In this document: in pieces, positions 43,780 to 60,644 of the stretch | Position numbering within the stretch: position 1 is the first letter of the stretch | How the letters are laid out: each line of letters starts with the position of its first letter | DNA from: an uncultured Smithella sp. | Lineage (GTDB): Bacteria > Desulfobacterota > Syntrophia > Syntrophales > Smithellaceae | Direction of reading: 5' to 3' | NCBI GenBank assembly: GCA_964443625.1 | Contig: CAYUDM010000008.1 | Coordinates: 4,550-68,549 of the forward strand | Length of the DNA stretch: 64,000 nt | Position numbers and translations under genes: made by a program | The notes under the pieces: model-generated | Seen by the model: only the letters and a program-made list of their open reading frames with translations | Database searches by the model: none | Told to the model about the DNA's origin: nothing

Positions 43780-43850
43780 TTTTAAACCTCCAATGCATTC
43801 AAACGTTAATGATCTTCACGAGAAAACGCTTCTTTTCCGAAGGAGCTTTT

Positions 43851-45056: not shown

Positions 45057-45063
45057 GAAAGCC

Positions 45064-46764
45064 TCAATCCAGATCTTCTTTCTCCGGCCACAAATACATG
45101 CCGCCTTCCAGGGTGCGGACATCCGGAAAACCCGCCGCATCCAACACGCGTTGAGCGGAAAACCCTCTCAGCCCGAGAAGACAGACACAGACAATCTTTT
45201 TGTCTTTGGGCAGTTCAGAGAGTCTCGAACGCAGTTCATCAAGCGGAATATTAATCACTTTGGGACTGCTGATGTGAGCGCGCCGAAATTCCCGATCCGA
45301 TCGAACGTCCACCATCAAGACATCGTCGTCATGATCCAGAAGCTCTCTGGCCGCGAGCGCCGTTATCGGTTTCATCAAGCCGGCTGTGACATTTTCCGCA
45401 ACATGAAGCGCCGTGATGAAAACATCCACCGCCTGCGAAAAAGGCGGCGCATAGGCCATATCCAGAGAAGCGATATCCTGAATGGTCGCGCCAAGCCGTA
45501 TGGCGGTCGCGGCCACATCGATACGGCGGACGATATCGCCCTTCCCCACGGCCTGCATTCCCAGAAGCTTGTGAGTGCCGTTTTCCAGGACCAGTTTCAA
45601 TCCCAGAATCTGGCTGTCGGGGTAATAATGGGCCTTATCAAATCCGCATACGGACAGCGCAAAGGCATCGAGGCCCTCTCGCTTTGCCTGCATCTCCGTA
45701 ACACCGGTGGCGCCGACAGAGTAATCAAAGGCCTTGCAGATGAAGGTGCCCTGCACACCGGGAAACTCCGAAGGAATGCCGCAGATGTTGTCGGCAATCA
45801 CCCTGCCGTGTTTGTTGGCGGTGGAGCCCAGCGGAATGTAACAAGGCTTGCCCGTCATGATATGCGTGCTTTCCACCAGGTCTCCGCCGGCATAAATATC
45901 CGGATCGCCGGTCTGCAAACGGGCATTGACCCGAAGCGCGCGAGTTTCGCCCAGGTCCAAACCCGCGGCCACAGCCATCTCCGTATTGGGCTGCAAACCG
46001 GCGGCGACAAGAACAAGGTCGGCGGAATATTCGTTCGTTCGGGTCATAACGCGGCCGATCTTTCCGCTTTGTCCCGCAAAGGAGAGGATCTCAGCGTTCA
46101 ATTCACATTCCACGAGGTTTTCAAAGAAATGCTCCCGGATCATCGCCGAGATTTCATAGTCGAGCATTCCCGGAAAAAGCTGCCCTTCACGTTCCAGAAG
46201 CGTCACGTCCCATTTTCTGGCGCGCAGGGCTTCTGCCATCTCCACTCCGATAAAGCCTCCACCGACGATCACGGCGGCGCCGGGCTTGCGCTTTTCGATC
46301 TCGCTCGCCAGGGCATTGGCATCTTCCATGCGGGTCAGATGGTATATCCCTTTTAAATCCGATCCCGGAATCGGAGGCATCTTAGGCCTTGCGCCCATCG
46401 CGAGCACCAGAGCATCATATTCAAATGAGAGCAATTCCCCTGTGACCATGTTCGTCGCACCGACCGTGCGATGTTTCCGGTCGATGGAGAGAACCCTGAT
46501 CTGCGTGCAAATGGTCGTATCCTTGAGATCCTTAAAATACTGGACGTCGCGAATCCGGCCATACGTGGTTTTCATCAGATCGTCCCGCTCGCGGATTTTT
46601 CCTTCCAGATAGTACGGCATGCCGCAGGCGGCATAGGATATAAACCGGCTCTGGTCCAAAATGGTAACCGCATAGTCGGGACGCAGGCGTTTGATGCGCG
46701 AGGCGGCTTTCGCGCCGCAGGCGGATGCTCCGATGATCAGAATTTGCTTTGAATCATTCATCAT
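45064..46764 (-). CDS. CoA-disulfide/persulfide reductase-rhodanese flavoprotein (CoADR-RHD/Npsr-like)
   Basis: IIGASACG FAD site, SYAACGMPY redox Cys, GGGFIGVE NADH site, YAPPF, C-terminal rhodanese DVRS...CLLGLRG. Confidence 0.88.
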   Translation of the reverse strand: MMNDSKQILIIGASACGAKAASRIKRLRPDYAVTILDQSRFISYAACGMPYYLEGKIRERDDLMKTTYGRIRDVQYFKDLKDTTICTQIRVLSIDRKHRTVGATNMVTGELLSFEYDALVLAMGARPKMPPIPGSDLKGIYHLTRMEDANALASEIEKRKPGAAVIVGGGFIGVEMAEALRARKWDVTLLEREGQLFPGMLDYEISAMIREHFFENLVECELNAEILSFAGQSGKIGRVMTRTNEYSADLVLVAAGLQPNTEMAVAAGLDLGETRALRVNARLQTGDPDIYAGGDLVESTHIMTGKPCYIPLGSTANKHGRVIADNICGIPSEFPGVQGTFICKAFDYSVGATGVTEMQAKREGLDAFALSVCGFDKAHYYPDSQILGLKLVLENGTHKLLGMQAVGKGDIVRRIDVAATAIRLGATIQDIASLDMAYAPPFSQAVDVFITALHVAENVTAGLMKPITALAARELLDHDDDVLMVDVRSDREFRRAHISSPKVINIPLDELRSRLSELPKDKKIVCVCLLGLRGFSAQRVLDAAGFPDVRTLEGGMYLWPEKEDLD

Positions 46765-47945
46765 TTTATGCCTTTGTTTTCGCACCTGACGTTGTCTACA
46801 TCCTTGCGGACGGCGACAAAAATCCGGTACAGTAAGGTCAGAATCAAAAGTCCCACCGCCCAGATGCCCAGTGTGATGGCGATTTCCGGTCCCGTCGGGT
46901 GATATTCGGAAATGGCTTCCAGCGGCGATGGAATAAACCCGGTAATGACCAGACCCAGGCCCTTTTCAATCCAGAGCGAGACAAAGACGGCGACGCAGGC
47001 CAGAGCCAGCCACCCTTCATTATGCCGGATCTTTGGAATAACCAGCATGAGCAGCGCAGCAAACGCCAGCAAGGCAGAGGCCCACATCCAGGGGACCAGG
47101 TTGTCATAGCCGTGCAGGCCGGCAAACAAATAGATGAAGTGAGCCTCATGCTCCGGCAGACCGCTGTAAAAGACCGTGAAGATTTCCACCCCGACGAAAA
47201 AGATACTGATGGCCAGCGCGTAGGCGACGATTTTCGATAACGTCCGGATCGCTTTTTGACCCGCGTCGAAACGGCCGAGATACTTCAGAATCAGGCAAAT
47301 CAGAATCAATAGCGCCGGGCCCGAGGCAAACGCGGAGGCCAGAAACCGAGGCGCCATGATGGCGGTGAGCCAGAAGCTCCGCCCCGGAAGGCCTGCATAG
47401 ATGAAGGCTGTTACCGTATGGATGCTGATCGCCCAGGGAATCGACAGGTAGATGATCGGCTTGACCCAGGAAGGCGGCGGGATTTCTTTTTTTGTACAGG
47501 ACAAAACAACCCAGCCGGTGATCAGATTGATCAACAAATACCCCGACAGGACCACCATATCCCAAAAAAGAATGGATGCCGGCTGCGGATGCAGAAGCAC
47601 GTTCATCACACGGGAGGGCTGGCCCAGATCAACAACAACAAACAGGATGCACATCACAACGGCGGCGACGGCGAGAAACTCGCCCAGGACGGTGATCCTG
47701 CCGAATGCCTTGTAGTCGTGCAGGTAGTAGGGCAAAACCAGCATCACGGCCGAGGCGGCCACGCCGACCAGAAAGGTGAACTGGGCGATGTAGAGTCCCC
47801 AGGAAACATCCCGGCTCATCCCCGTGATTCCCAGGCCGTAGTCCAGCTGCTGAAGATAAAAGAAGAAACCGGTTGCGGCAAGTCCCAGCAGAAAGGCGAT
47901 CCAGACCCAGTAAACGCGGCTGCCTTTTAAGGCTTTTTCCAGCAT
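46761..47945 (-). CDS. dsrP: DsrP (NrfD/PsrC family membrane subunit)
   Basis: GITGMSRDVSWGLYIAQFTFLVGVAASA, DLGQP, SILFWD, SIHTVTAF, PRFLASAF. Confidence 0.95.
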   Translation of the reverse strand: MLEKALKGSRVYWVWIAFLLGLAATGFFFYLQQLDYGLGITGMSRDVSWGLYIAQFTFLVGVAASAVMLVLPYYLHDYKAFGRITVLGEFLAVAAVVMCILFVVVDLGQPSRVMNVLLHPQPASILFWDMVVLSGYLLINLITGWVVLSCTKKEIPPPSWVKPIIYLSIPWAISIHTVTAFIYAGLPGRSFWLTAIMAPRFLASAFASGPALLILICLILKYLGRFDAGQKAIRTLSKIVAYALAISIFFVGVEIFTVFYSGLPEHEAHFIYLFAGLHGYDNLVPWMWASALLAFAALLMLVIPKIRHNEGWLALACVAVFVSLWIEKGLGLVITGFIPSPLEAISEYHPTGPEIAITLGIWAVGLLILTLLYRIFVAVRKDVDNVRCENKGIK

Positions 47946-47952
47946 GGCATCC

Positions 47953-48729
47953 TCACAGGATATAATAGATCTGCGGCGCGGTGCCTAAGTGGGGCCGCCT
48001 TCGCAGGTTAAAACGTGTTTCCAGAAGTTTGCGGATTTCCGAGCTCGGATCCTCCAGATCACCGAACACGATGGCTTTGTGTTTGCAAGCCAGGACACAG
48101 GCCGGAAGCTGTCCTTTGGCCAGCCGCTCTTCACAGAAGTTGCACTTCTCCACGACGCCTCTGGCGCGTGTCGGAAAGTCCGGATGGAGCTTCGCGATAA
48201 ACGGGCGCGGGTCGCGGAAATTCATGCTCCGCGCGCCGTAGGGACAGGCGGCCATGCAAAGCCGGCAGCCGATGCAGCGGTGGTAATCCATCATGACGAT
48301 GCCGTCTTGCCGTTTAAACGTCGCCTGCGTCGGGCAGACCCGGACACAGGGAGGATTTTCGCACTGATTGCACAAAACGGGAATTCTGAGATTCTGAATC
48401 GCTTTTCCCTGGTAGGGGTGATCCTCCGCCGGAAAAACGGAAGAAAAAGGCTCGGTCCAGATCCACTTGACTTCATCTTTGGGATTGCTGAAGTCGGGGA
48501 CATTATGCACCGCGTGGCAGGCGGTGATGCAGTCGGTGCAGTCGGTGCTGCATCGGGACATATCAATCGCCATGGCCCAACGCTTGGCCGAAAGCGAGTT
48601 GACGGACAAAGAAGTCTGCCCCGGAATCGGGAAGTTTTCGCCCGCCCGGGCCGGAAGAAGGGGGAACGTGATCAACGTCAAGGCGGACGCTCCGGCAATT
48701 TTCAAAAAGTCTCTGCGGTTCGTCGTCAT
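47953..48729 (-). CDS. dsrO: DsrO, Tat-exported 4Fe-4S protein
   Basis: RRDFLK Tat motif, CxxCxxxC clusters, CIGCRLCMAACP, VEKCNFC. Confidence 0.95.
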   Translation of the reverse strand: MTTNRRDFLKIAGASALTLITFPLLPARAGENFPIPGQTSLSVNSLSAKRWAMAIDMSRCSTDCTDCITACHAVHNVPDFSNPKDEVKWIWTEPFSSVFPAEDHPYQGKAIQNLRIPVLCNQCENPPCVRVCPTQATFKRQDGIVMMDYHRCIGCRLCMAACPYGARSMNFRDPRPFIAKLHPDFPTRARGVVEKCNFCEERLAKGQLPACVLACKHKAIVFGDLEDPSSEIRKLLETRFNLRRRPHLGTAPQIYYIL

Positions 48730-49136
48730 TTTTTCACCTCTTCCGGAACAAGATGACAGCTATAGCAGGTGGGTTTGGCGCCCACGTAATCATGACAGCG
48801 GTCGCAGAATTGTTCCTTGTTGCTGTGGCAGCGAAGGCAGGAATGGGTCAGGCTTTTTTCGAACTTGCGGCCGTCTTTCGCGGTGTACTGGCGTTTGCCT
48901 TCTCGAACGGCCTCATCGCGCCAGCCCTTGAGCATCTTCATATGATCCGTGCGCATCACGGCCGTATCTTCGACGCATTTTTTGTCCTGCATTGACTGAA
49001 TAACGGGCGTATCCAGACTGAGCACAGGCGCCGGCGCTGATTGAATCGCGCCGTACCAGAAGGGAAAAGTAGCCCCGAGAAGGAAGATTCCCAAACCCAG
49101 AAGAATTAAACCCCATTTATATTGTTTCATCTTCAC
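48726..49136 (-). CDS. dsrJ: DsrJ triheme cytochrome c
   Basis: N-terminal TM, CVE...MRTDHM, CLRCH, CDRCH, CYSCH. Confidence 0.95.
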   Translation of the reverse strand: MKMKQYKWGLILLGLGIFLLGATFPFWYGAIQSAPAPVLSLDTPVIQSMQDKKCVEDTAVMRTDHMKMLKGWRDEAVREGKRQYTAKDGRKFEKSLTHSCLRCHSNKEQFCDRCHDYVGAKPTCYSCHLVPEEVKK

Positions 49137-49160
49137 ACGTTCCGTAATATGTTTACGTTC

Positions 49161-49291
49161 AGCTATGAGCTATGAGCTGCGAGCTGCACCCCATTCACCC
49201 TCCCCCTGCCCCTCCCATCAAGGGAGGGGAGGTGATTCAATTATTCGTGCTATTCCCTCTCCCCACGTGGGAGAGGGTCAGGATGAGGGGG
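49161..49291. repeat. heptamer array plus an inverted pair of CCCTC(T)CCC-N5-GGGAG(A)GGG REP-like hairpins
   Basis: agctatg x2, agctgcg, agctgca (49161-49188); unit A 49189-49230; unit B 49253-49291 in the opposite orientation. Confidence 0.8.
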
Positions 49292-50888
49292 CTGATATCT
49301 CCTCGCCTCTCAAATCCGTCGTCCTTTCCTTCTCGCCTCTCATCACCAGGGCATTGCCGACCAGTTCATGAACGCCCATGACCGAGACGCCCGGCACCCA
49401 GTAGTCCATGAGCGTCGAAAGCGTCGCCCGATCGATGGCGCAGATGCAGCCCAGCCGGTTGACGCTGTGCTTTTTCACGACGTCACGCACGGCCATGGCT
49501 CTGGGCATCCCGCCACGCATCCGCATTTCCAGATTCTCATCGTTGCCCAATCCCGCGCCCGCGCCGCAGCAGAAGGTTTTTTCGCGGATCGTGTCTTCCG
49601 CCATTTCATAAAAATTCCGGCAAGTGTTTTCAATGATGTATCGCGGCTCTTCAAGCAGGCCCATGGCTCGCGCCGGGTTGCATGAATCATGAAACGTCAG
49701 TCTGACATGATTGTTACGCCGCGGGTCGAGTTTTAATTTGCCGTTCCGGATCAGGTCGGCTGTGAACTCGACGATATGCACCATTTTGGTGGAGCGCGCA
49801 TTTTCAAACCGCGTGCCGGTAATCGGCGAAAGCGGTTCGGAAAGGAAATCCGCCGGCCCGTTCATCGTATCCATGTATTGATGGATCACCCGCCACATGT
49901 GCCCGCATTCGCCGCCCAGAATCCATTTGACGCCCAGGCGTTTGGCTTCGGCGTAAATCTTGGCGTTGAGCCTTTTGATCATCTCATGCGAGGTAAAAAG
50001 GCCGAAGTTGCCGCCTTCCGAGGCATACGTGCTGAAGGTATAATTGAGGCCGATTTCATGGAAGAGCATCAGGTAGCCCATGCAGGTGTATGTGCCGGGA
50101 TCGGCGAAATAATCGGCCGACGGCGTGACAAACAAGATATCCGCGCCTTTTTTGTTGATCGGAACGTCCACGCGAACACCGGTGCTCTCTTCGATGTCGT
50201 CGGCCAGAAATTCCAGCATGTCCTTCATGCCGCCGGGCTGAATGCCCAGATGGTTGCCGGTCCGGAAACAGTTGGCTGCGGGTTCGAGTACCCAGTTGAT
50301 GTTACATCCCACCAGATTTAAAAGCTCGCGGCCGATCATGGTAATTTCCGCCTGGTCGATGCCGTAGGGGCAGAAAACAGAGCAGCGGCGGCATTCCGTG
50401 CACTGATAAAAATAGTAAAACCATTCCTTGAGAACATCCTCGGTCAGATCGCGCGCGCCGGCTAATGTTCCGAAGCATCGTCCCGCCGTCGTGAAATAGC
50501 GACGGTACACCGAGCGGATCAGCTCGGCGCGCAAGACCGGCATGTTTTTGGGATCGCCGGAACCGATATAGAAGTGACATTTGTCCGCGCAGGCGCCGCA
50601 ACGCACGCAGATATCCATAAACAGGCGGAAGGAGCGGTATTTTTCCAATCGTTCTTTCATGCCGTCCAGAATGATCTGTTTCCAGTTTTCCGGCAGCTTC
50701 CAGTCGGGATCGGTCGGCTGCCAGGCCCGCGGGTTGGGCATCTCCAGAGTCGTCACATTCTTTGCGGCGGCTGGGTAACTCCAGGTACCCGGACGGAAAT
50801 CAACGGGGGTTTTCATCCAGTCCGTTCCGGGAGGTGTATATTTGATATTGAGGAGTTCATCCGGTTTGGGAATCTTGGCAAAAGACAT
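49278..50888 (-). CDS. dsrK: DsrK (HdrD-like catalytic subunit)
   Basis: CVRCGACADKCH, CTECRRCSVFCPYGID, GGECGH, FHDSCN, CCGAGAG, CAIDRATL. Confidence 0.96.
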   Translation of the reverse strand: MSFAKIPKPDELLNIKYTPPGTDWMKTPVDFRPGTWSYPAAAKNVTTLEMPNPRAWQPTDPDWKLPENWKQIILDGMKERLEKYRSFRLFMDICVRCGACADKCHFYIGSGDPKNMPVLRAELIRSVYRRYFTTAGRCFGTLAGARDLTEDVLKEWFYYFYQCTECRRCSVFCPYGIDQAEITMIGRELLNLVGCNINWVLEPAANCFRTGNHLGIQPGGMKDMLEFLADDIEESTGVRVDVPINKKGADILFVTPSADYFADPGTYTCMGYLMLFHEIGLNYTFSTYASEGGNFGLFTSHEMIKRLNAKIYAEAKRLGVKWILGGECGHMWRVIHQYMDTMNGPADFLSEPLSPITGTRFENARSTKMVHIVEFTADLIRNGKLKLDPRRNNHVRLTFHDSCNPARAMGLLEEPRYIIENTCRNFYEMAEDTIREKTFCCGAGAGLGNDENLEMRMRGGMPRAMAVRDVVKKHSVNRLGCICAIDRATLSTLMDYWVPGVSVMGVHELVGNALVMRGEKERTTDLRGEEISAPSS

Positions 50889-50890
50889 GG

Positions 50891-51892
50891 CTACTCCTTC
50901 TCCACCGGCAGACCGGCCGCTTTCATTTTATCGCGGAATTCGTCTTCATATTCTTCATAGGTATGCACCTTCACGGGGCCGTTCCATGGATTGATGTGTC
51001 TTTGGCTGCGGTTGTTATTGATCATGTTGCGCGTGGGGCTCAAAAAGATGCCGCCCCAATGCATCAGTTTGCTCCACGGCAGCCAGACCATCAGCGTGAA
51101 GATCAAACATAAGTGCATATACAGGAAAGCGCCCGCTTCTTCGGGAACAACCGGCGTCAACGTCACCCAGCCGATCACCAGGGTTTTTACGGCATGCAGA
51201 TCGACGGCAAAGAAGTGCCTCATCATAAGTCCCGTTCCGGCAATTCCCGCAATCAAAAACAGGGCGAAATAATCGGTAAATAAAGAAATGTAACGCACCT
51301 GCGGCCCAACGACTCTTCGCAGGAGCAGAAAGGTCAATCCCGCCAGAAGCGCCGCGTCGCTTAAGTAAAGCGCCGGAGTGCCGATTTCCAGAAAACCGTC
51401 CAGCGAGGAAAGTCCGTTGATAAAAGGCGCGATGGGTTCCGTGAAAAAGCGCAGATGCCGAAGTGCTACGATAAGGAGCGATCCGTGAAACATCAGGCCG
51501 AAAAACCACAGCCATTTGGCGCTGCCGAACACCTGGCGACCATCGATCATCTGCACATCGGAATTACGAAAAAGCGACCGGAACAGGAAAATCTCGCCGG
51601 CCATTCTTCCGATAACACTCACCTTGCAGCAGGGATTTTCGAGCGGATTGTTTTGAATCCAGGGCAGGCTTTTTTGCTGGCCGCAGGTGGTCGGAATGCG
51701 GAAAGGAACCGGGGCCTTTGCCCATTTTACAACCCGGTACACAAAGCCGAACAGGAAAAGAACAAATACGGCATACGGGACAATCATCGCCAGAAGATAG
51801 CTTCCCGCAGGATTAGCCGAGATGGCCGCGGCCAGAAGGGCAATACCGAAAACCAGAATGAGGGGCAACAGTACCTTCATAAAGAATCTCAC
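50891..51892 (-). CDS. dsrM: DsrM (NarI-like diheme b membrane subunit)
   Basis: PVPFRIPTTCGQQKSLPWI, E.FLFRSLFRN, FHGSL...LRHLR, PWSKLMH...FLSPTRN. Confidence 0.96.
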   Translation of the reverse strand: MRFFMKVLLPLILVFGIALLAAAISANPAGSYLLAMIVPYAVFVLFLFGFVYRVVKWAKAPVPFRIPTTCGQQKSLPWIQNNPLENPCCKVSVIGRMAGEIFLFRSLFRNSDVQMIDGRQVFGSAKWLWFFGLMFHGSLLIVALRHLRFFTEPIAPFINGLSSLDGFLEIGTPALYLSDAALLAGLTFLLLRRVVGPQVRYISLFTDYFALFLIAGIAGTGLMMRHFFAVDLHAVKTLVIGWVTLTPVVPEEAGAFLYMHLCLIFTLMVWLPWSKLMHWGGIFLSPTRNMINNNRSQRHINPWNGPVKVHTYEEYEDEFRDKMKAAGLPVEKE

Positions 51893-53514
51893 TTATCCGA
51901 TAGGTCTTCCCACGACGGTTCTTCACCGAAGCGGATCATCGGTTTTTGCATGCCTTCGAGAGCATTGACGATCAACTCGACCAGTCCGCCGTAATGCAGG
52001 TTGCTTCGTGCTTCTGCGTCGTAATAGTGAATCAGATCACGGATCGCTCCCTTGCAGTTCGAGCAGGGGGCGCAGACGTATTTGGGCGTATCTTGCGGTT
52101 CGTTCTCAAAAGCTTTTAGAATCTGCAGAAACTTTTTGCGCGAGCTGACCAGGTTTCGCCAGTCGGTGAAATTATATCCCGACATGATGGCAAAGCCCGA
52201 TCCGCCGCCGCAGCAATAGTTATGAACGCCGTGCGGCGTCATTTCCCGGAAGCGCGGCGCGATTTTTCTTAAAATTCTTCTTTGCGGTTCGACAATGCCC
52301 ATTGAGCGCACGACATTGCAGGGATCATGCAGCGTGACGGGGAAATTGTTCTTCCGTGGATCGAATTTCAATCGGCCGCTCAGAACGATATTTTCCAGTG
52401 TGACCAGCGCCGACTCCCGCGGAATGTTCAGATCGCCCGTCAACAGCCGGTCGGCAATGACCGTCAGCGCCTTATGCGCGTGCCCGCACTCGCCGATCAC
52501 GATTTTTTTCACTTTGAGCCTGCGGGCAATGTCCGCATGTTTGACGGCAACGCGCGAGAATTGCACATCGTCGTACCACAGGCCGTAATTGACGGCATCA
52601 TAACCCACCGCTTCAGAAGACAAGGTCCACGAAAGGCCGGCCGCCTGGAAGAGAATCGCAAAAGCGCCTACGCTTTCCGGCCAGGCCAGCATTTCACCGG
52701 CATTGTGCAAAAGCAGAATATCCGCCCCTTCGACGTCCCAGGGAATCTCGACCGGATAGCCGGTAATTTCTTCCATCTCTTCCCTGATAAACTCAATGCT
52801 GTCTTTTGCCGCCGGAGGAGTCATCCCTGTTGAAGAACCGGACTTCAGATGCAAAACGGTACCCTTCTCATGGAGTTCTTTCGGAGCGATGCCCATTTCC
52901 TGCGAAAACAGTTTGCGGATTTCATGGTTGATCAGTCCGTTATCCACCCCGATGGGGCAGACCGAAGCGCAACGACGGCAAAGGGAGCAGCGGTAAGACA
53001 ACTCCGCCAAGCGCGCGATGGTTGTCCAGTTCAAATCGATATCGTAGCCCAGCCGGGCTGTAATTTTTCCGCCCGGTTTGAGATATTTTTTATAAATGCG
53101 GCGCAGGACTTCCGAACGAAAGACCGGCCGGTAAATCTCCTGACGTCCACTCATCTCAAAGACAGGACAAGCATCCGAACAGGTCTGGCATCGGGCGCAA
53201 TGCTCCATGGACAAAAGCAGAGGCTGCAAAAACGTCCAGTTGTTCTCTTTTTCGAAAAGCTTCTTCAGGCCGGAAAGGAAACGCAACACCAGTGCTTCCT
53301 CTTCCTCACGGCTGGCGGGCTTCGGAATGCCGATGGCGACGGTGTCATCAAGCGATGCTTCGATATTTTTTATTTTCTCGGCTTTGAGCGGCGCAGGCCC
53401 CCTGCCATTGAAATCTTCATACGGCGGAGGCAGAGGTGCAAGGTCTCCAGGCTCGATGCGGCTCAAGCGATCGGTCGCAGCGGCAATGTCGGACGGTTTC
53501 AGGAGGGGTTTCAT
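51889..53514 (-). CDS. second DsrK-like Fe-S/CCG protein (DsrK2)
   Basis: CARCQTCSDACP, CSLCRRCASVCP, GECGH, HDPCN, CCGGGSG, CAPCSNC. Confidence 0.85.
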   Translation of the reverse strand: MKPLLKPSDIAAATDRLSRIEPGDLAPLPPPYEDFNGRGPAPLKAEKIKNIEASLDDTVAIGIPKPASREEEEALVLRFLSGLKKLFEKENNWTFLQPLLLSMEHCARCQTCSDACPVFEMSGRQEIYRPVFRSEVLRRIYKKYLKPGGKITARLGYDIDLNWTTIARLAELSYRCSLCRRCASVCPIGVDNGLINHEIRKLFSQEMGIAPKELHEKGTVLHLKSGSSTGMTPPAAKDSIEFIREEMEEITGYPVEIPWDVEGADILLLHNAGEMLAWPESVGAFAILFQAAGLSWTLSSEAVGYDAVNYGLWYDDVQFSRVAVKHADIARRLKVKKIVIGECGHAHKALTVIADRLLTGDLNIPRESALVTLENIVLSGRLKFDPRKNNFPVTLHDPCNVVRSMGIVEPQRRILRKIAPRFREMTPHGVHNYCCGGGSGFAIMSGYNFTDWRNLVSSRKKFLQILKAFENEPQDTPKYVCAPCSNCKGAIRDLIHYYDAEARSNLHYGGLVELIVNALEGMQKPMIRFGEEPSWEDLSDK

Positions 53515-54467
53515 TTGACCTCCCTGGGCGTTGACGATGCAATGTCCTTCCAGGATTTACGCCCGTCCGCTTCGATGTGTTTGGCCTGCCACGTCGGACG
53601 ATAATTCAAATTCGTCAGCACAGCCGCCTCAATGTCATTGCCGCGCCGACTGGGCCTGTCGTCCCACTTGACCTGATGGTAAAGAAAATATTTCATAAAC
53701 ATGTGTGACATGTGGGTCAGCGGAATATAGGCGGCCAGCAGCGATCCGAGAAGAATCGTCAGCACACCGTAAAGCGTTTGCCCCGGCTGGTAACCGGACG
53801 CAAAGCTTCCCGCTGTCAAAAGGCCTGTGACGTAGGACGAGGCCGCATCAAAGGAAGGATCGGCCAGGGCCGCGGTTAGCAGTCCGCAGACAAAAAATGC
53901 CAGAAACAAGACGAGGTTGATATAATCCGCAGGCGTGGCATAGAGCTTCATCTCCCGGTCGACCAGGCGCGTAAACAGCAGGCCGAGCGAGCCGAAAAAG
54001 CCCGCGGCAAGTCCGATCCAGCCGCAGATGAAAGCAAGTCCGCCAAGCGCTGTTTTCAGAACGCTGCCTTCGGCAAAGATCGAAGGACCCCATACGGTCA
54101 AGCCGGCCGAAATCAGAAACAGGGCAAAGGTTGCCAGCACCAGATACAGCCCCAGGTGAAACGGAAAAGAAACCCACCAGAGTTTTTTGTTTTCTTTCCA
54201 AAGGCCTCTCAAAAGCAAGATTTCCGGCGCCATATATTTGAACTCATTTGCCCGGGATGTTTCATGAGAAGACTTCCACCAGTCCGGCTCTTCCAGGTAG
54301 GAGCCCCCGTAGGCCGCCTTGGCGGCCGTCTCATGCTGAACCGGATAAACCTCCCAACGAACATGCACAGGAAGCTTTAACTGTCTTACGACACGCCAGG
54401 CAACAGCCGCCGCAAAGACGATCAGGCAAACGTAGGTAAAAATATAAAATCCCATAAACAACACCAC
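53511..54467 (-). CDS. second DsrM-like NarI-family membrane protein (DsrM2)
   Basis: PVHVRWEVYPVQHE...GGSYLEE..WW, FPFHLG, YIPLTHMSHMF. Confidence 0.85.
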   Translation of the reverse strand: MVLFMGFYIFTYVCLIVFAAAVAWRVVRQLKLPVHVRWEVYPVQHETAAKAAYGGSYLEEPDWWKSSHETSRANEFKYMAPEILLLRGLWKENKKLWWVSFPFHLGLYLVLATFALFLISAGLTVWGPSIFAEGSVLKTALGGLAFICGWIGLAAGFFGSLGLLFTRLVDREMKLYATPADYINLVLFLAFFVCGLLTAALADPSFDAASSYVTGLLTAGSFASGYQPGQTLYGVLTILLGSLLAAYIPLTHMSHMFMKYFLYHQVKWDDRPSRRGNDIEAAVLTNLNYRPTWQAKHIEADGRKSWKDIASSTPREVK

Positions 54468-54586
54468 TACTTATTTCCATGGTGACGCCGCCGACAAAAC
54501 GACAGCGATAAATTGATACCCTAGCTAGAGCATCCGAGGCCACAAGACCGCTTAATCCCTGCCAGAAGCTGCTTCCACCACCTTCT

Positions 54587-54710
54587 ATTTCTTTTCCAAA
54601 TCAAGATGATACCGCGGCGGCAAGGAGGAGGCGCCGAAGGCGTATTATTAATACGTCGAGGACGCCGACGACGCTGCCAACAAAGGTAGCGCTTGATTTC
54701 GGAAAGAAAT
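54587..54710. repeat. 124-bp palindromic MITE/REP-like element
   Basis: 19-bp terminal inverted repeats (17/19 match: atttcttttccaaatcaag and cttgatttcggaaagaaat) with a nested internal stem ggcgtatta-t-taatacgtc. Confidence 0.7.
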
Positions 54711-55030
54711 CACACGCAGCCGGTCGGCTTGGATAATCCCGCCAGTTTGCAGGCCCCTTTGGCCGGACCGGTTGGAAAAAGCTCATAGAGTTTTTTCATA
54801 TCGATTTTCAAATCTTTGCAAATCTTTCGGATCATGGGCGCAATGCCGAACTGCTGGAAGTAATCCCGCAGATAGTTGATCACGCGCCAGTGCTCTTCCG
54901 TCAGGTCCCCCTCGATGTCTTCAGCGGACGCGTAAGCATTGGCAAATTCTTCGTTCCATTGGTCGAGATCCTGCAGGAACCCGTCTTCATCCACTTCATA
55001 CGTTTTACCGGCTAATTCGATTTGCGGCAT
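54710..55030 (-). CDS. dsrC: DsrC sulfur carrier
   Basis: VDEDGFL, LTEEHW, ELFPTGPAKGACKLAGLSKPTGCV with both C-terminal Cys (Cx10C). Confidence 0.97.
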   Translation of the reverse strand: MPQIELAGKTYEVDEDGFLQDLDQWNEEFANAYASAEDIEGDLTEEHWRVINYLRDYFQQFGIAPMIRKICKDLKIDMKKLYELFPTGPAKGACKLAGLSKPTGCV

Positions 55031-55064
55031 ACCTTATAACCTCCTGATTGATTCAATTTCCTTT

Positions 55065-56528
55065 TCATAATGATCTCCTGCTCTTGCCTGAAGTGCTCAC
55101 CGGAAGATCCCGGTTTGACAAAGCAGACTGATTTGTTTTCGATCGGCGGTAGGCATCAGCGGCGCTTACGAGCGCCCCGGCCCACTCGGGGGTTCCCAGG
55201 GCGTGCAGATGCGTAAAGCCCGCCAGAATATTATTTTTGCTCATGCCGTCGCGGCCGTTACCGATGCCTGTTCCGCGCAGAACATAGTAAGCGGTTTGAA
55301 TATCTTCATCGCCCGATGAAAAAATTCGGCAGTAATGAAACTCATGGCCGGTTAACGTCTGGCCGATGGGGAAGAAAGGGTTCTCCCGATCCACAACCAC
55401 GGTGGTGTAGCCGTGACCCTGAGGCTTATTTTCCAGGCGGAATGTTACGGGCAAGGCGCCGGCCATTGGATAGCGTTTGTCGCCGATCACCAGGGTTTCG
55501 CCCAGATAGATAAATCCTCCGCATTCGGCGTAAATCGGCAACCCGGCTTCCGCTGCGTCTTTGAGGGAACGACGAAAGGCTTCGTTTGCGGCCAGCTTCT
55601 CCGCCTGCGTTTCAGGAAATCCCCCGCCGATGTACAAGGCATCGACCGGCGGCAGGGCTTTTTCGGAAAGCGCGCTGATTTCGACGATCTTCGCCCCGCG
55701 GTCGGACAGGGCGAGAATATTGTCCGAATAATAAAATTGAAACGCCGCGTCTTTGAGGACACCGATTCGAACAGGTTCCGAAACCGTACGGCGCGAGCGG
55801 GGCGAATCGGGAAACGCGTCGATCGTCCAGGCCGGCGCGCCTTTGGCGACCTCAAGCAATCCGGCAACGTCCAGATAATCCTGGGCAATGGACTGCGCTT
55901 TTAGAAGCGCCTGCTCCATGCCGTCGTGTTCCTCGGGGGGAATCAGGCCCAGATGGCGCTGCATAAAAGGCAGGTCCGGCAGACGCGGCACAACCCCGAA
56001 AACAGGAAGGCCTGTTGATTCTTCGATGGCCCGGCGGATCACGGACGCATGGCGATTGCCGCTCACCCGGCTTAAGATCACGCCTTGAACGTTGACCGCG
56101 GAATCGAGATGAAGGCAACCCAGCACCATGGCCGCCGCCGTCCGCGTGACCTTGTCGCAGTCGACCACCAGGATCACAGGGGCAGCTAGCAGCTTGGCCA
56201 GTTCGGCCGTGCTGAAATCTCCCGTGGCGTTCACGCCGTCAAATAGACCGCGATTGCCTTCAATGAGCGAAATATCCGCGTGCGCACAGTGGCGCGCAAA
56301 AGACCGGGCCACCTGATCGGCGCCCATGAGGTATGTGTCCAGGTTGGAACAGGGACCGGATGCCGCCCGGGACAACCAGGCGGCGTCAATATAATCCGGT
56401 CCCTTTTTGAAAGGGGCGATTGTCAGACCCAGACGGCGCCAGGCAGCAATCAAGGCCACCGAGAGGGTTGTCTTTCCCGCTCCGCCTCGCAGGGCGGCCA
56501 TCACTAAACGCGGACATGATCGATTCAT
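55065..56528 (-). CDS. dsrN: DsrN siroheme amidase (cobyrinate a,c-diamide synthase family)
   Basis: GGAGKT, FKKGPDYID, IEGNRGLFDG, ERHLGL-like QRHLGL, AECGG, GHEFHY; position directly after dsrD. Confidence 0.92.
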   Translation of the reverse strand: MNRSCPRLVMAALRGGAGKTTLSVALIAAWRRLGLTIAPFKKGPDYIDAAWLSRAASGPCSNLDTYLMGADQVARSFARHCAHADISLIEGNRGLFDGVNATGDFSTAELAKLLAAPVILVVDCDKVTRTAAAMVLGCLHLDSAVNVQGVILSRVSGNRHASVIRRAIEESTGLPVFGVVPRLPDLPFMQRHLGLIPPEEHDGMEQALLKAQSIAQDYLDVAGLLEVAKGAPAWTIDAFPDSPRSRRTVSEPVRIGVLKDAAFQFYYSDNILALSDRGAKIVEISALSEKALPPVDALYIGGGFPETQAEKLAANEAFRRSLKDAAEAGLPIYAECGGFIYLGETLVIGDKRYPMAGALPVTFRLENKPQGHGYTTVVVDRENPFFPIGQTLTGHEFHYCRIFSSGDEDIQTAYYVLRGTGIGNGRDGMSKNNILAGFTHLHALGTPEWAGALVSAADAYRRSKTNQSALSNRDLPVSTSGKSRRSL

Positions 56529-56555
56529 ATCTTTCTACCTGATATCGTGCGACTC

Positions 56556-56780
56556 TTACTCTTTCGGAAAATACTCGGCCAGGATCAGATAGGTCGAACT
56601 TCCGCTGGACCAGTATTTCAGAACTTCTTCATCGAGAAGTTCTTTCACAACATTCTGAATGGCATGGCGATCCTCACCCGGAAGCCACTTCGTGACGTCC
56701 CGGATGTAGAACATTTTCTTGTCGCCCTTTGATTTTTCCCGAAACAACTCTGTGATTTTCGCTTTCAGATCGTCGCTCAT
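56556..56780 (-). CDS. dsrD: DsrD
   Basis: 74 aa, MFYIRD...YWSSGSSTY; 4 nt downstream of dsrB. Confidence 0.92.
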   Translation of the reverse strand: MSDDLKAKITELFREKSKGDKKMFYIRDVTKWLPGEDRHAIQNVVKELLDEEVLKYWSSGSSTYLILAEYFPKE

Positions 56781-56784
56781 TTTT

Positions 56785-57846
56785 TTACCTCCACTTAAAC
56801 TGCGCGGATGTCCGGAAAGTTTCCGTGGCCAGATCAAAGTCATCGATATGCTGGTCGGTAAAGGGAATTCCCGTCAGGGAGAAGAAGCGTTCCCAGCCGA
56901 CGCGCTCGATCCATTCGCCCACGCGTTCATGCTTTTTTGCGTGGCTTGCGTACACTTCAATGATGTTCTTGACGGCGTCGACCACTTCCGGCCAGCGCGG
57001 CGGATTGTTGGGCAGAAACGGAATCGCCAGTTTGGAAAACATTGGCTTGCTGCGGGCGTTGGAAACTTTTCCGCCCACCCAGATGGAAATTCCGTCGTTG
57101 TCCGGATCGGCAATCGGCATCGCCGGACAAACGGTGTAGCAGTTGCCGCAGTACATGCATTTCTCGTCATTGACGGTCAGCGTTTTATTTTTCATATCGC
57201 CGCGGATGGCGCCCGTCGGACACGAGGCCACCGTTGAGGGGATTTCACAGACATTGGGCACGCGGGAGTTATCGGTCTTTGGCACTGTCCGGTGAATGCC
57301 CAGAATGGCGATGTCCGAGCAATGCACCGCGCCGCACATGTTCAGACAGCAGGCGAGCGCAATCCGGACATGCGCGGGAAGTTTGGCTTCCACGAAGTGT
57401 TCGTAAATTTCGTCCATCAAGGCTTTGACCGGGCCGGAGGCGTCGGTGGCGGGCGTGTGGCAGTGGACCCAGCCTTGCGTGTGGACGATGTTGGAAATGG
57501 AGTGCCCTGTGCCGCCCACGGGATAGCCGCGTTTTGTCAACTCGGCAATCAGCGGTTCGAGTTGTTCCTTGTCGTCCAGCAGAAATTCGATGTTGTGGCG
57601 GCTGGTGAATCGCAGAAAGCCTTCGCAGTATTTTTCCGCGATGTCGCAGATCTCGCGGATGTGATCCGTCGAAACCAGGCGTGGAGAGCCGGCGCGCACG
57701 CTGTAGAGCGCTTCTCCCGATTCGCCCACGTGCATCAGGACGCCGGGTTTTACAATCTCATGATACATCCATTTGCCGTAATTTCGCTCGATCACGGGCG
57801 GCAGCATGGTCTTATAGTTGGGGGGTCCGATATCCGTTTTTGCCAT
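56785..57846 (-). CDS. dsrB: dissimilatory sulfite reductase beta subunit
   Basis: [50 protein letters not shown]. Confidence 0.98.
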
Positions 57847-57847
57847 T

Positions 57848-59035
57848 TTACTTTTCCTCCTTCTTGAGATCTTCGGGCCAGAAGAAGACATAGGGGTTGG
57901 TTCTGGGCGCTTTGACCATCTGCGGCACCGCGGGCAGGCCGACCGCTTTCAAAAAGACCCGCATCCCCAGGCGCTGAATCAGCTCACCCAGACGTTCACG
58001 CGATTTTCCGAACTCATCCCACCAATCCTGAATGCGTTCGATCAGATCTTTCAATTCATCATAAGGCGGTTCGAGTTTCATAAACGGCACAACCACCCAG
58101 GACAGAAGCGCCCCTTTCACAATCGGCGCTTTGCCGCCCACGAGAATGGACGCGCCGGTTTCTTTCCCCGGCCGCAGGGCTTTGGGCATGACGTTGATGC
58201 AGTGCATGCAGCGTGTGCAGTCTTCGTCGTAGATTTTGAGTTCTTTGCCGTTCCATTCCATGCAGCGTGTCGGGCACAGATCACAGACTTCCTTTTGGAT
58301 GTTGATGTTTTCCGCGTAGGCTAGCACTTCATCGGCATTGATCCGGATGGCGTCTTTCCAGGTGCCGATAATCGACAAATCGGATCGGGCAATCGATGCG
58401 ACACAATCATTGGCGCAGGCGGAAATCTTGATTTTGAATTTGTAGGGGAACATCGGGCGATGCATCTGATCCTGATAGGTCATGGTGAGATTGTAGCAAA
58501 GATCGAGGCTGTCGACACAGGCCCACTCGCAGCGCGCAGGGCCGACGCAGGCACTCGGCGTGCGCAGCGCCGAACCGGAACCGCCCAGATCGAAGCCGGC
58601 GTCCGACAGATCGTTGAAACAGGGCTGGAGATGCTCCGTGGTGGTTCCCAACAAAATGGCATCCCCTGTCGACCCGTGCATATTGGTGAGCCCGCTTCCA
58701 TGTTTGTCCCATATCTCGCACAGCTTGCGCAACGCGTCTGTTTTGTAAAACCATCCCGCGGGATGATTAACCCGCATGGTATGGAACGCCTGGACATTCG
58801 GGAATAGATCGGGGCGATCAGAATAGCGGCCGATGACGCCGGAACCGTAGCCCTTGACGCCGACTATGCCTCCATGTTTCCAGTGGCCGATTTTATCCTT
58901 GTAGGATAGTTCCAGCTGATGCAAAAGATCTTTGGCCATCGGATTCTTTCGGGCAGCCTCTTTCATGTCTTTGACGAAGCTCGGCCATTGGCCTTTTTCC
59001 AGTTCGTCTAATAAGGGAGTATCGAATTGCCCCAT
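57848..59035 (-). CDS. dsrA: dissimilatory sulfite reductase alpha subunit
   Basis: [59 protein letters not shown]. Confidence 0.98.
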
Positions 59036-59156: not shown

Positions 59157-59357
59157 AATATATTCATATACATAAGTGCTCTGAATGGGTTTCACATAGT
59201 GATTCGTATTTCAATGTCAAATTTCAGATGATCCGGAGAGCTTACTTTTCAAAGCAATGAATACGGTACGGCAAAAAAATTATTTCTGGCAATGAAAAAC
59301 GGATTCATTATAGAAACATCCCATGGCCCCGCGCGGTCATGGGAAGGATATTTCGAT

Positions 59358-60644
59358 ATGTCTGACGTGCAATCCGCCGATTGCAAGCCCTGCGCTCTGC
59401 TGTGGGATGAATCTTATTTGTGGGGACTGATGGCCTGGAAGGCCCTGCGGCAGTCGGATCTACCCTTTGATCTTGTCCGTTCCGAAGAGATCCGGGCGGG
59501 CGCGCTATCATCTTACGCAATGATTTTTGTTCCCGGTGGATGGGCCGCCGCCAAAGTGTCCGCGTTGGGAAAAGCAGGGCTTACCGAAATTCGACGCTTT
59601 GTTCAAGACGGCGGAAGCTATCTGGGCATTTGCGGCGGCGCGGGACTGGCCACAGACTCTCATCTTGGGCTTCTACCGGTTTACCGCACACCCAACCTCG
59701 ATCGGGTTCCCAGCTTCAGCGGCCCGATCCGTCTTACGCTTTCCGATAATCCGTTCTGGAACACTGTCCCGAAACCTGGCTTTCATGCGTGGTGGCCCCC
59801 GCAGTTGGATGCAACGATCGAAAAAGATTTTCGCATTCTGGCCCGTTATGATGAAGCCCTGCCTCAGGCCATGAGTGCGGATATCCTCGTGGCGGACGGA
59901 CGTAAAACGGGCTGGGCCAAGCTGGAAAAAGCCTACGGAATTTTACTCGATCCCGACCGGCTCAAAGGCGAACCGGCGGTTGTGGAAGGGCTCTACGGCC
60001 GTGGAAAAGTTGTTTTGTCGCTTTTGCATTTCGACACACCAAATGACCCCAATAGTGCGCGCGTGTTGAAAAATCTGTGGCGCTATCTGATCGATGAAGC
60101 GCATTGCACCCTACGCATCAATCCGCCGTCTTCGGCGGATGTTCCTTGCGGAACTAATATTTTTCCGTTTGCAGATATACTTGATGACATCGCCAGGACA
60201 GTGTCTCACTTGATCGCCGAGGGCGAACGGCGTCATTTCTGGCGTCGTCGCAACGAACTGCTGCTGCAATGGCGTCGCGGCATAAGGGGCATGGAATATT
60301 CAACACTTTGCGCCATGACCCAAGACATCGCACAACGACTTTCCGTCCATAACGAATCATTCAAATCGCCTGCCTGGCCGGATCAGGCGCATCTGAAACA
60401 GAGTCTGGAACAGATAGGAAAACGATTGCATGAGTTTGCCGACGAATCAATACCGCTTCTGCGCCTAGAGCATGCCTTTGTAACCGACGCAGATGCGACG
60501 CGAGAGCCTTGCCGGGACGAAAAGATCAATCGTCTGCGCGAAGTATTATTCGGCGCATCAAGACAGTTCGGCGGAAAATTCAAAATCTTAATCGACGCCC
60601 TTGACTACCTGCTGTACCGACTGCTGAAATCGGATTCGCTGTAA
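59358..60644 (+). CDS. BPL-N / class I glutamine amidotransferase-like domain protein
   Basis: IFVPGG...FVQDGGSYLGICGGA nucleophile-elbow motif, LSLLHFD; start uncertain (59292 or 59358). Confidence 0.7.
   Translation: MSDVQSADCKPCALLWDESYLWGLMAWKALRQSDLPFDLVRSEEIRAGALSSYAMIFVPGGWAAAKVSALGKAGLTEIRRFVQDGGSYLGICGGAGLATDSHLGLLPVYRTPNLDRVPSFSGPIRLTLSDNPFWNTVPKPGFHAWWPPQLDATIEKDFRILARYDEALPQAMSADILVADGRKTGWAKLEKAYGILLDPDRLKGEPAVVEGLYGRGKVVLSLLHFDTPNDPNSARVLKNLWRYLIDEAHCTLRINPPSSADVPCGTNIFPFADILDDIARTVSHLIAEGERRHFWRRRNELLLQWRRGIRGMEYSTLCAMTQDIAQRLSVHNESFKSPAWPDQAHLKQSLEQIGKRLHEFADESIPLLRLEHAFVTDADATREPCRDEKINRLREVLFGASRQFGGKFKILIDALDYLLYRLLKSDSL

Follow-up and report, generated by a model that had tools for sequence, protein, structure and literature searches.

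Does a bacterium of the order Syntrophales whose dissimilatory sulfite reductase looks unlike that of Desulfovibrio owe this enzyme to another phylum? The question is raised by a dsr locus in a stretch of 64,000 nucleotides (the window) from an uncultured Smithella sp., for which an earlier note, made from the letters alone, had proposed the horizontal acquisition of a short, Nitrospirae/Firmicutes-like DsrABD. Our analysis points to another explanation, which we consider likely: the locus is a complete reductive dsr cluster, with the insertion-free DsrAB that is normal for the Syntrophales, inherited vertically at the level of genus and family and serving the respiration of sulfite. The foreign look is then explained because the Deltaproteobacteria supercluster is only one DsrAB clade, derived and insertion-bearing, and because the short, older form predominates in the wing of the Desulfobacterota to which the Syntrophales belong.

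Gene content and order of the dsr locus

All genes described here lie on the reverse strand. The alpha subunit of the dissimilatory sulfite reductase is encoded by dsrA (57848–59035), whose short, insertion-free product of 395 aa has K at position 61, as judged from the open reading frame (ORF), PDB alignments, an indel table and the NCBIfam model TIGR02064, against which it scores 564 bits (cut-off 393). The gene for the beta subunit, dsrB (56785–57846; 353 aa from MAKTDIGPP), is adjacent to dsrA, beginning one base past its stop, and its product scores 528 bits against TIGR02066 (cut-off 342). A longer dsrB ORF of 368 aa was discarded, since it overlaps dsrA, its start is unused in relatives, and the close relatives all have 353 aa. 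Right after dsrB lies dsrD (56556–56780), whose 74-aa product, with the C-terminus ...YWSSGSSTYLILAEYFPKE, matches PF08679 (56.7 bits) and D. vulgaris DsvD (1UCR, E = 6e-9); DsrD is a marker of the reductive direction.

The dsrN-like gene (55065–56528) encodes a homologue of cobyrinic/sirohydrochlorin a,c-diamide synthase (NF002204, 425.7 bits), and its place after dsrD is conserved in relatives. It is followed by dsrC (54710–55030; TIGR03342, 117.9 bits), for a protein of 106 aa that has both C-terminal cysteines and ends in CKLAGLSKPTGCV, and by a second, divergent DsrMK-like pair (51889–54467), formed by a NarI-type membrane protein (PF02665) and a CCG-domain protein that reaches 336 bits with the DsrK model, below the cut-off of 400. 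This pair occurs in two variants within the host genus. The dsrMKJOP block (46761–51892) comprises dsrM (50891–51892), dsrK (49278–50888), dsrJ (48726–49136), dsrO (47953–48729) and dsrP (46761–47945); DsrM, K, O and P all score above the cut-offs of their NCBIfam equivalogs, and DsrJ, with three CxxCH motifs, was identified as an ORF. The gene string continues with a CoADR-rhodanese flavoprotein (45064–46785; Pfam Pyr_redox and Rhodanese), ackA (43851–45140; AckA, 459 bits) and xsc, for sulfoacetaldehyde acetyltransferase (42016–43779), which is assigned by the Xsc model (853 bits, cut-off 676) and is co-distributed with short-type dsrA. By gene content and order, we read the locus as a complete reductive-type dsrABD-dsrN-dsrC-(dsrMK-like)-dsrMKJOP cluster.

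Short DsrAB compared with solved structures

The features that had suggested a foreign enzyme are real. Gene calls and alignments bear out the two subunit lengths, the lack of an N-terminal insertion and the WSSGSST ending of DsrD, and the Desulfovibrio comparators that the earlier note set against them are also correct: D. vulgaris DsrA and DsrB have 437 and 381 aa in the PDB, the insertion before the DLL motif and the HGGIVGVFGYG motif are seen in the PDB alignments of Desulfovibrio-type DsrA, and YWSSGSSTY of the window corresponds to YWSSGSTTM in D. vulgaris DsvD. The DsrAB(C) of D. vulgaris, D. gigas and Desulfomicrobium norvegicum (2V4J, 3OR1 and 2XSJ) are of the same family and subunit order and align end to end with the window (DsrA 469–501 bits, DsrB 450–502 bits). 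However, the Desulfovibrio-type subunits have 437 and 381–386 aa, against 395 and 353 aa here, they carry insertions at DsrA positions 24–36 and 238–252 and DsrB positions 103–112 that are absent from the window, they have F61 instead of K61, and they fall in a separate clade (AU p = 0.005); sat, apr and qmo are present in these organisms as well. In the alignments with Desulfovibrio and Desulfomicrobium DsrA the insertions appear as about 13 aa before DLL and 16 aa near residue 243. The best-scoring solved structure is that of Archaeoglobus fulgidus DsrAB (3MM5; 583 bits for DsrA and 510 bits for DsrB), whose DsrA, like that of the window, is without the 238–252 insertion, but has its own 12-aa N-terminal insertion and comes from an archaeal host with the full sulfate-reduction pathway.

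When indels and residues were compared over 153 DsrAB pairs, the DsrA of the canonical clade had a median length of 435 aa, with 11–12 additional aa at positions 24–36 and 16 at positions 238–252, accompanied by 7 additional aa in DsrB and by F at DsrA position 61 in 35 of 40 sequences. The clade of the window has none of these insertions, and K61 in 26/26. The insertions and residue 61 are diagnostic of the DsrAB clade, in the sense of being typical of the canonical clade rather than formally defining it. The length of DsrA alone was rejected as a test of a "non-deltaproteobacterial" enzyme, because short DsrA is found in several Desulfobacterota families.

Position of the window in the DsrAB tree

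As anchors of the canonical clade we took Desulfacinum, Desulfobulbia and a sequence of the Desulfovibrio type (872 bits against 2V4J), and the comparison used phylum samples centred on one Nitrospirota MAG and one Syntrophomonadaceae MAG, with named MAGs and PDB sequences as anchors. The non-deltaproteobacterial look of DsrAB is confirmed by the trees, in which the sequences of the window and of the canonical Desulfobacterota form separate clades, each at 100/99; their forced union is 59.6 lnL worse (p-AU 0.005), for a group that was defined after the first tree and a hypothesis that the earlier note had set beforehand. The insertion state separates the canonical Desulfobacterota (Desulfovibrio, Desulfacinum, Desulfobulbia) from all other DsrAB in the trees.

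The Syntrophales-short clade comprises 26 rows (support 99, and 100/100 in the careful tree) and, together with the Bacillota "Firmicutes group", belongs to a larger clade of 29 rows (100/99), which also holds named Syntrophomonadaceae and Eggerthellaceae MAGs. The Bacillota enzymes (Firmicutes group sensu lato, of the Desulfotomaculum/Desulfosporosinus type and from Gordonibacter-like Eggerthellaceae) resemble those of the window in their short subunits, lack of insertions and basic residue 61, but the identity is about 68–71%, and the Syntrophales sequences form a lineage of their own (100/100), not nested among them. Nitrospirota DsrAB are more distant from the window than the Bacillota group. 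The type-II DsrAB of Desulfobacterota are not monophyletic, with Bacillota, Planctomycetota and Acidobacteriota sequences interleaved, and therefore some inter-phylum transfer of DsrAB must have happened.

Such a transfer could in principle have occurred very early, if the ancestor of the Syntrophales and their neighbours obtained a Bacillota-like dsrAB and replaced or lost the canonical one. This scenario draws on the 100/99 clade shared with the Bacillota group and Planctomycetota, on the rejected union with the canonical Desulfobacterota, on the K/R61 common to the Syntrophales-short and Bacillota sequences, on a paralogue rooting that puts Bacillota sequences nearest the root, and on the count of Desulfobacterota among the taxa with multiple dsrAB transfers by Diao et al. 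(PMC10591310). We nevertheless hold it to be rather unlikely. In the RpoBC species tree, built from two linked genes (RpoB and RpoC) by quick searches, a 34-row clade (support 100) unites the Syntrophales with families f48, f52, f61, f74, f35, f25 and f81, and, among genomes from outside the order, 9/12 in this wing have type-II DsrAB versus 1/31 elsewhere (Fisher p = 3.6e-6); its presence in seven Desulfobacterota families of the same wing fits residency or outward donation as well as it fits reception. Moreover, the Syntrophales clade is not nested within Bacillota sequences, the node being a polytomy, and a common lack of insertions does not count as derived. The paralogue rooting makes the short form ancestral with a support of 57–83, and, at this weak support, the shared lack of insertions is probably the ancestral state. 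As for its deep origin, the short form could be native to the Syntrophales-containing wing, or could go back to a very ancient exchange, with Bacillota or with Planctomycetota as the partner.

Host lineage and distribution

The host had been taken for Syntrophales-like, and this agrees with the identity of its RpoB to named MAGs, which points to a Smithellaceae-like member of the order: among the matches listed, RpoB shares 91–93% identity with MAGs that carry the name Smithella sp. or Syntrophaceae, and the DsrA of these MAGs is 86–91% identical to that of the window. Across the order dsrA is present in 40/151 genomes, in 32 of these 40 as the short type, and every one of the 5 genomes sampled from the host genus has short-type DsrAB; within the host family, 7 of the 11 genomes have the cluster. 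The nearest DsrAB relatives are all Syntrophales; the best 120 database matches are all 77–91% identical, and the named ones are Syntrophales or "Deltaproteobacteria bacterium". The identity to the window drops with the distance of the host, from 88–92% within the genus to 87% in the family and 80–86% in the order.

The distribution, identity, tree placement, composition and monophyly tests refute the literal form of the proposal, in which this particular organism would recently have received the genes from Nitrospirota or Bacillota, and we give it next to no probability. Its appeal lies in a superficial resemblance, namely short subunits without insertions, whereas the best identity outside the Desulfobacterota is about 70%, compared with 80–92% across the host order, the gene is present in all 5 members of the genus with an ordinary composition, and the Nitrospirota sequences branch far away. 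A compositional anomaly, which the earlier note had suggested looking for, did not appear: the tetranucleotide distance of the dsr region is only at the 20th–41st percentile of the genome, its GC content is 0.545–0.551 (genome 0.530 ± 0.025), and the deviation in codon usage is at the 57th percentile for dsrA, the 78th for dsrB, the 8th for dsrN and the 22nd for dsrK.

The genome is an assembly of 104 contigs with an estimated contamination of 3.7%, which leaves room for the dsr contig (C8) to have been binned from another organism of the metagenome. We judge such an artefact to be extremely improbable, as the tetranucleotide profile of the contig is typical of the genome and the same cluster occurs in five independently assembled genomes of the genus, in one of which (G135) dsrA, xsc and rpoB are together on a single 3.48-Mb contig.

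Relation to published Syntrophales dsrAB

Diao et al. (2023, PMC10591310) place the "uncultured DsrAB lineage 6" of Mueller et al. (2015), a family-level lineage, in Desulfobacterota; Syntrophia; Syntrophales, and it lies within the Firmicutes group sensu lato (PMC6381063). In our trees DsrAB of the window clusters with that of Syntrophales genomes and with the Firmicutes group, and belongs to none of the three named superclusters. Lineage 6 and the window thus share the host order, the reductive bacterial type, a place beside the Firmicutes group that is not in the Deltaproteobacteria supercluster, and a dsrABD and dsrMKJOP gene set without sat, apr and qmo (their absence here being drawn from an AprA search and the literature). 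No difference between the two was found, in an equation that is based on the taxonomy in these papers (PMC10591310, PMC6381063) and not on reference sequences. The short DsrAB is the normal, already published type of the order Syntrophales, and therefore does not indicate a recent import.

A recent article (ISME Commun 2026, PMC13685792) describes dsrAB without sat or aprA in the Smithellaceae genera UBA8904 and MVRV01, and interprets the dsrAB of these sister genera of Smithella as ancestral and lost in Smithella. The nearest named relatives of our host are likewise Smithellaceae MAGs, and its GTDB genus is probably UBA8904. The main text of that article mentions neither xsc nor sulfonates, and in its available part no passage was found on the DsrAB type or on incongruence between families; lateral exchange inside this DsrAB lineage may be new.

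The practical message is a negative one: the odd look of DsrAB is a known property of the order, and no sign of recent gene import. This matters to environmental surveys, in which dsrAB serves as a marker for naming reducers of sulfate and sulfite. With a literal reading of "Firmicutes-group" dsrAB sequences, the Syntrophales sulfite reducers of digesters, peat and sediments are placed in the wrong phylum, and these abundant organisms are also scored as sulfate reducers despite having no sat or apr.

Predicted sulfite respiration

From what is known for the protein family, DsrAB would reduce sulfite, DsrC, with both cysteines present, would receive the sulfur as a trisulfide, and DsrMKJOP would reduce the DsrC trisulfide with menaquinol-derived electrons, with DsrD as the putative small activator typical of reductive systems. 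An AprA search gave no hit in the host genome and none in the 8 named relatives (0/8), and only 2 of the 151 genomes of the order scored above the cut-off, both with long-type DsrAB. In the literature Syntrophales have been reported that are positive for dsrABD-MKJOP with zero sat, aprAB and qmoABC. Since AprA is absent from the genome and the published relatives are without sat, apr and qmo, the enzyme is predicted to respire sulfite instead of sulfate. This sulfite would most likely come from Xsc, whose gene lies 14 kb downstream in the same string; xsc is carried by five family-level groups only.

Probable vertical descent, and exchange between families

The proposal of lateral acquisition is partly supported: DsrAB lies outside the Deltaproteobacteria supercluster, in a 100/99 clade with Bacillota, but an import by the host or its family from a Nitrospirota- or Firmicutes-like donor finds no support. 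In the suggested comparison with the host, the DsrAB tree is congruent at the genus, family and broad-clade level, which speaks against the proposal, although it does not place the window inside that supercluster. Monophyly of DsrAB is not rejected for the host genus (p-AU 0.40) nor for the host family (f1, p-AU 0.084), which the ML tree shows as a paraphyletic grade of weak support, and DsrAB has probably been inherited vertically at the scale of host genus and family. Between the Syntrophales families, the DsrAB tree rejects the two-gene species tree (dlnL 625, p-AU 4e-46), and tests also reject a monophyletic f16, a monophyletic f19, f5 at the base, and f18 and f1 as sisters (p = 1e-3 to 2e-7). 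The DsrAB/RpoBC distance ratio falls from about 1 within the genus to 0.5–0.7 between families. Because of this incongruence, vertical descent can be claimed only for the genus and family. The transfer that is demonstrable in this DsrAB lineage is between Syntrophales families and outward, not into the host from another phylum.

The same incongruence and falling ratios would be expected if another family of the Syntrophales, a close and compositionally similar donor, had passed the entire dsr(-ackA-xsc) island to the host family. The patchy distribution of dsrA (40/151), a genus (g57) that contains both DsrAB types, the two island variants within the host genus and the export of the island to a genome outside the order argue in the same direction. 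We regard this as possible but doubtful, as neither genus nor family monophyly is rejected, the identity to the window ranks genus over family over order, and the ORFs scanned at the borders include no mobile-element gene such as an integrase or transposase, with no tRNA anywhere in the 64-kb window. Composition cannot discriminate acquisition within the order. The context upstream of the dsr cluster is not conserved among relatives.

Alongside vertical inheritance in the genus and family, which we prefer for this DsrAB, we lean slightly towards regarding the stretch of about 16–23 kb with dsrABDNC-dsrMK-dsrMKJOP-ackA-xsc as a mobile "sulfonate-to-sulfide" respiration island, exchanged repeatedly between Syntrophales families, even as allelic variants within the host genus, and exported at least once to another order. 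If so, gains through transfer would have contributed to the patchy occurrence of dsrAB in the Syntrophales, in addition to the losses that published work has proposed. The remaining interest of the locus lies in the evidence for this movement of a whole dsr-xsc island between Syntrophales lineages, which bears on whether syntrophs gain or lose a respiratory option. A collinear dsr-ackA-xsc island is present in the genome outside the order (L010), whose RpoB is 60% identical to that of the host; its DsrA, which shares a contig with rpoB, branches in a nested position as the sister group of f16 (100/98).

Gene content of the dsr-xsc island

The interval named by an earlier note on this sequence consists of dsrA, dsrB and dsrD, all three on the minus strand. 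The dsrA gene (57848-59035) encodes 395 aa and scores 564 bits against its NCBIfam equivalog model (cut-off 393), and dsrB (56785-57846; 353 aa, 528 bits, cut-off 342) starts one base past the dsrA stop; dsrD (56556-56780; 74 aa) is matched by Pfam PF08679 and by D. vulgaris DsvD. The string continues with a dsrN-like amidase gene, a dsrC with both C-terminal cysteines, a divergent DsrMK-like pair (51889-54467) and a complete dsrMKJOP, in which dsrJ (48726-49136) has three CxxCH motifs. Between dsrP and ackA lies a minus-strand flavoprotein gene (45064-46785), CoA-disulfide-reductase-like with a C-terminal rhodanese domain, which is missing in the otherwise collinear islands of G135, a same-genus genome, and G447, a genome from outside the order. 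After ackA comes xsc (853 bits, cut-off 676), and beyond it genes for an SDR, a ThDP enzyme, an MFS transporter, a Zn-dehydrogenase and a TetR regulator. The window spans 4550-68549 of contig C8 in a host genome of 3.15 Mb and 104 contigs, which holds a single DsrAB.

Divergent from dsrA is a 450-aa ORF (59292-60644, plus strand) with a weak Pfam BPL_N match (biotin-protein ligase N-terminal, class-I glutamine-amidotransferase-like). Its homologues, 47-54% identical, lie upstream of dsrA on the opposite strand in three relatives (loci L003, L005 and L012), in which the AOR and polyferredoxin genes farther upstream of the window's dsrA are not conserved.

The DsrAB is of the short type and branches outside the canonical clade

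The earlier note described the DsrAB as short and insertion-free and the DsrD as differing at its end, and both descriptions hold, its comparators agreeing with the solved structures and with DsvD. In those structures DsrA of Desulfovibrio and Desulfomicrobium has 437 aa and D. vulgaris DsrB 381 aa, against 395 and 353 aa in the window. Relative to the window, the Desulfovibrio/Desulfomicrobium DsrA has about 13 additional residues ahead of the DLL motif, reads HGGIVGVFGYG, and near residue 243 contains an insertion of 16 residues; DsrB has insertions of its own; DsvD reads YWSSGSTTM where the window's DsrD reads YWSSGSSTY. In an alignment of 153 DsrAB pairs, length, insertions and residue 61 separate by clade: in the canonical clade the median length of DsrA is 435 aa, with 11-12 additional aa at 24-36 and 16 at 238-252, F61 in 35 of 40 sequences and 7 additional aa in DsrB, whereas the window's clade lacks these insertions and all 26 of its sequences (26/26) carry K61. 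In the Bacillota group this DsrA residue is R or K.

The DsrA+DsrB set comprised 40 host-order genomes, about 70 others of the host phylum, 30 from the phylum of a Syntrophomonadaceae MAG, 24 Nitrospirota genomes and 80 named MAGs (the best 80 matches). Trees were built with FastTree (153 rows) and IQ-TREE (LG+C20+F+G4; 82 rows, 752 columns), and both place the window's DsrAB outside a distinct canonical clade (support 100/99). The latter includes a Desulfovibrio-type sequence (family f65, 872 bits to PDB 2V4J), Desulfacinum, Desulfobulbia, the classical laterally acquired Bacillota sequences and the long-type DsrAB of a Syntrophales minority (families f2, f12, f15 and f24). The window's DsrAB falls within a Syntrophales clade of short sequences (100/100), to which FastTree joins another Desulfobacterota family, f61, as sister. 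A 29-row clade (100/99) unites this lineage with Desulfobacterota families f48, f52, f25 and f35, with some Planctomycetota and with the Bacillota 'Firmicutes group', to which the named Syntrophomonadaceae and Eggerthellaceae MAGs belong; Nitrospirota and an Acidobacteriota-rich cluster are more distant. Forcing the short Syntrophales and canonical clades together costs 59.6 log-likelihood units (p-AU 0.005), which bears out the claim that the enzyme is not of the Desulfovibrio-type supercluster.

This core point, a Syntrophales DsrAB outside the classical supercluster, is already known. Mueller's 'uncultured family-level lineage 6' was placed under the Firmicutes group by Woerner and Pester in 2019, on Mueller's scheme (PMC6381063), and is assigned to Desulfobacterota; Syntrophia; Syntrophales by Diao et al. 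2023 (PMC10591310); Mueller et al. stressed that DsrAB group names carry no taxonomic implication. In Table S1 of Diao et al., Syntrophales MAGs, Smithellaceae UBA8904 among them, are positive for dsrA, dsrB, dsrD and dsrJKMOP and negative for sat, aprAB and qmoABC (PMC10591310). A 2026 Smithellaceae study gives the same gene pattern, interpreted as ancestral presence with loss in Smithella (PMC13685792).

Origin of the dsr genes in the host

Among the best 80 species-representative matches, the nearest DsrA (80-91% identity) belong to MAGs named Smithella sp., Syntrophaceae bacterium, Syntrophus sp. or 'Deltaproteobacteria bacterium'. The host RpoB is 91-93% identical to that of six of these MAGs, against 76-78% for other Syntrophales, 66% for Desulfacinum and 58-60% for remoter Desulfobacterota. 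This makes the host a Smithellaceae-like member of Syntrophales, the order that the earlier note had supposed. Its GTDB genus is probably UBA8904, judging from PMC13685792, which reports dsrAB in UBA8904 and MVRV01 and its absence from Smithella proper.

Across 151 genomes sampled from the order, dsrA is present in 40, in 32 of these as the short type; it occurs in 5/5 host-genus and 7/11 host-family genomes. DsrAB identity to the window declines with host distance, from 88-92% in the genus to 87% in the family and 80-86% in the order, reaching about 70% only outside the lineage, and RpoB identity over the same steps is 90-92%, 84-88% and 70-79%. Neither the host genus (p-AU 0.40) nor the host family (p-AU 0.084) is rejected as a monophyletic group by DsrAB. 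The composition checks proposed earlier revealed no anomaly: tetranucleotide distances of 5-kb segments spanning the dsr genes rank at the 20th-41st percentile genome-wide, codon-usage distances of the dsr genes at the 8th-78th, and the GC of the region is 0.545-0.551 compared with 0.530 ± 0.025. We thus see no sign of lateral acquisition of dsr by this host. A binning artefact was ruled out, dsrA, xsc and rpoB being together on one 3.48-Mb contig of G135.

The short type is probably not foreign to Desulfobacterota either. In a species tree of RpoB+RpoC from 65 Desulfobacterota, Syntrophales form a 34-row clade (SH-aLRT 100) with families f48, f52, f80, f69, f61, f74, f35, f25 and f81. Among genomes outside the order, non-canonical (type-II) DsrAB occurs in 9/12 within this clade versus 1/31 elsewhere in the phylum (Fisher p = 3.6e-6), which makes the short type the DsrAB normally met in this wing of Desulfobacterota. 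When DsrA is rooted by DsrB and vice versa, the root falls close to f25/f35 and the Bacillota group, and the insertion-bearing canonical clade comes out as derived (support no higher than 57-83); on that reading, the features noted earlier are shared ancestral states and not a mark of kinship with Nitrospirota or Firmicutes. In the DsrAB tree, other phyla branch among the type-II Desulfobacterota, and old inter-phylum transfers must therefore have happened. The earlier interpretation, non-deltaproteobacterial and laterally acquired, is partly supported: the position outside the classical supercluster stands, whereas a recent import, or one from Nitrospirota or Firmicutes, does not.

Proposed sulfite respiration

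AprA scores above the cut-off in 2/151 order genomes (G011:C30 and G032:C3, family f12), where aprA and a long canonical-type dsrA are 11-12 kb apart on one contig, and these two are probably true sulfate reducers within Syntrophales. No AprA above the cut-off was found in the host genome or in eight named relatives. A divergent AprA-like flavoprotein with full model coverage (386-388 bits, cut-off 642) is encoded at G018:C7:56584-58260 and G038:C29:12732-14408 (family f18, genus g21), in G018 about 4 kb from a short-type dsrA.

The xsc gene is found in 16/151 order genomes, all 16 with short-type dsrA (one a broken copy), at a spacing of 13-15 kb wherever contigs permit comparison, and also in six named same-genus MAGs. 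From gene content and this co-distribution, both directly observed, we infer a pathway in which Xsc would release sulfite from sulfoacetaldehyde, AckA would conserve ATP from acetyl phosphate, and DsrAB, DsrC and DsrMKJOP would respire the sulfite.

Probable transfer of the island between Syntrophales lineages and beyond the order

If anything here is new, it is the mobility of the dsr-xsc island, both inside Syntrophales and outward from the order. At the level of Syntrophales families, the DsrAB tree is in strong conflict with the RpoBC tree and with taxonomy: the DsrAB data reject the species topology (dlnL 625, p-AU 4e-46). They also reject f16 (p = 9e-4) and f19 (p = 1e-3) as monophyletic families, a basal position for f5 (p = 2e-7), and a sister relationship of f18 and f1, the host family (p = 1e-4). 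Both DsrAB types occur within one genus, g57 of family f15 (L111 in G123 versus L089 in G144). Members of family f48 also differ, with short type-II at L159 (G214) versus long canonical type-I at L133 (G340). Such differences within one genus or family imply replacement by transfer at shallow taxonomic depth.

The host genus has two island variants, judged by identity to the window's DsrMK-like pair at 51889-54467 (loci compared: L331, L008 and L330): M 30% and K 60-62% in one, M 56-64% and K 82-86% in the other. Variants so different suggest cassette exchange inside the island. The dsrABDNC-MK-MKJOP-ackA-xsc string, at 42016-59035 in the window, is collinear in same-genus G135:C2 (L331) and in G447:C7 (L330). 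G447 carries the label 'Desulfomonilia bacterium', has an RpoB 60% identical to the host's and falls outside Syntrophales in the RpoBC tree; its DsrA (L010) has 84% identity to that of the window and nests within the short Syntrophales clade as sister of family f16 (f16g19; 100/98), and dsrA, xsc and rpoB share one contig (the 1.04-Mb contig_7). This is the clearest of the cases and appears to be an evident inter-order transfer of the island.

The G447 dsrB is apparently disrupted, its alignment covering residues 189-353 only. At L122 (G007:C1:1906500-1909800; a complete 2.9-Mb genome, family f8, genus g11) dsrA is truncated with an in-frame TAG and dsrB is split in two; the gene pair appears to be decaying in this closed Syntrophales genome, and its congeners retain intact copies. 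In G100 (family f19), dsrA is fragmented and xsc is intact.
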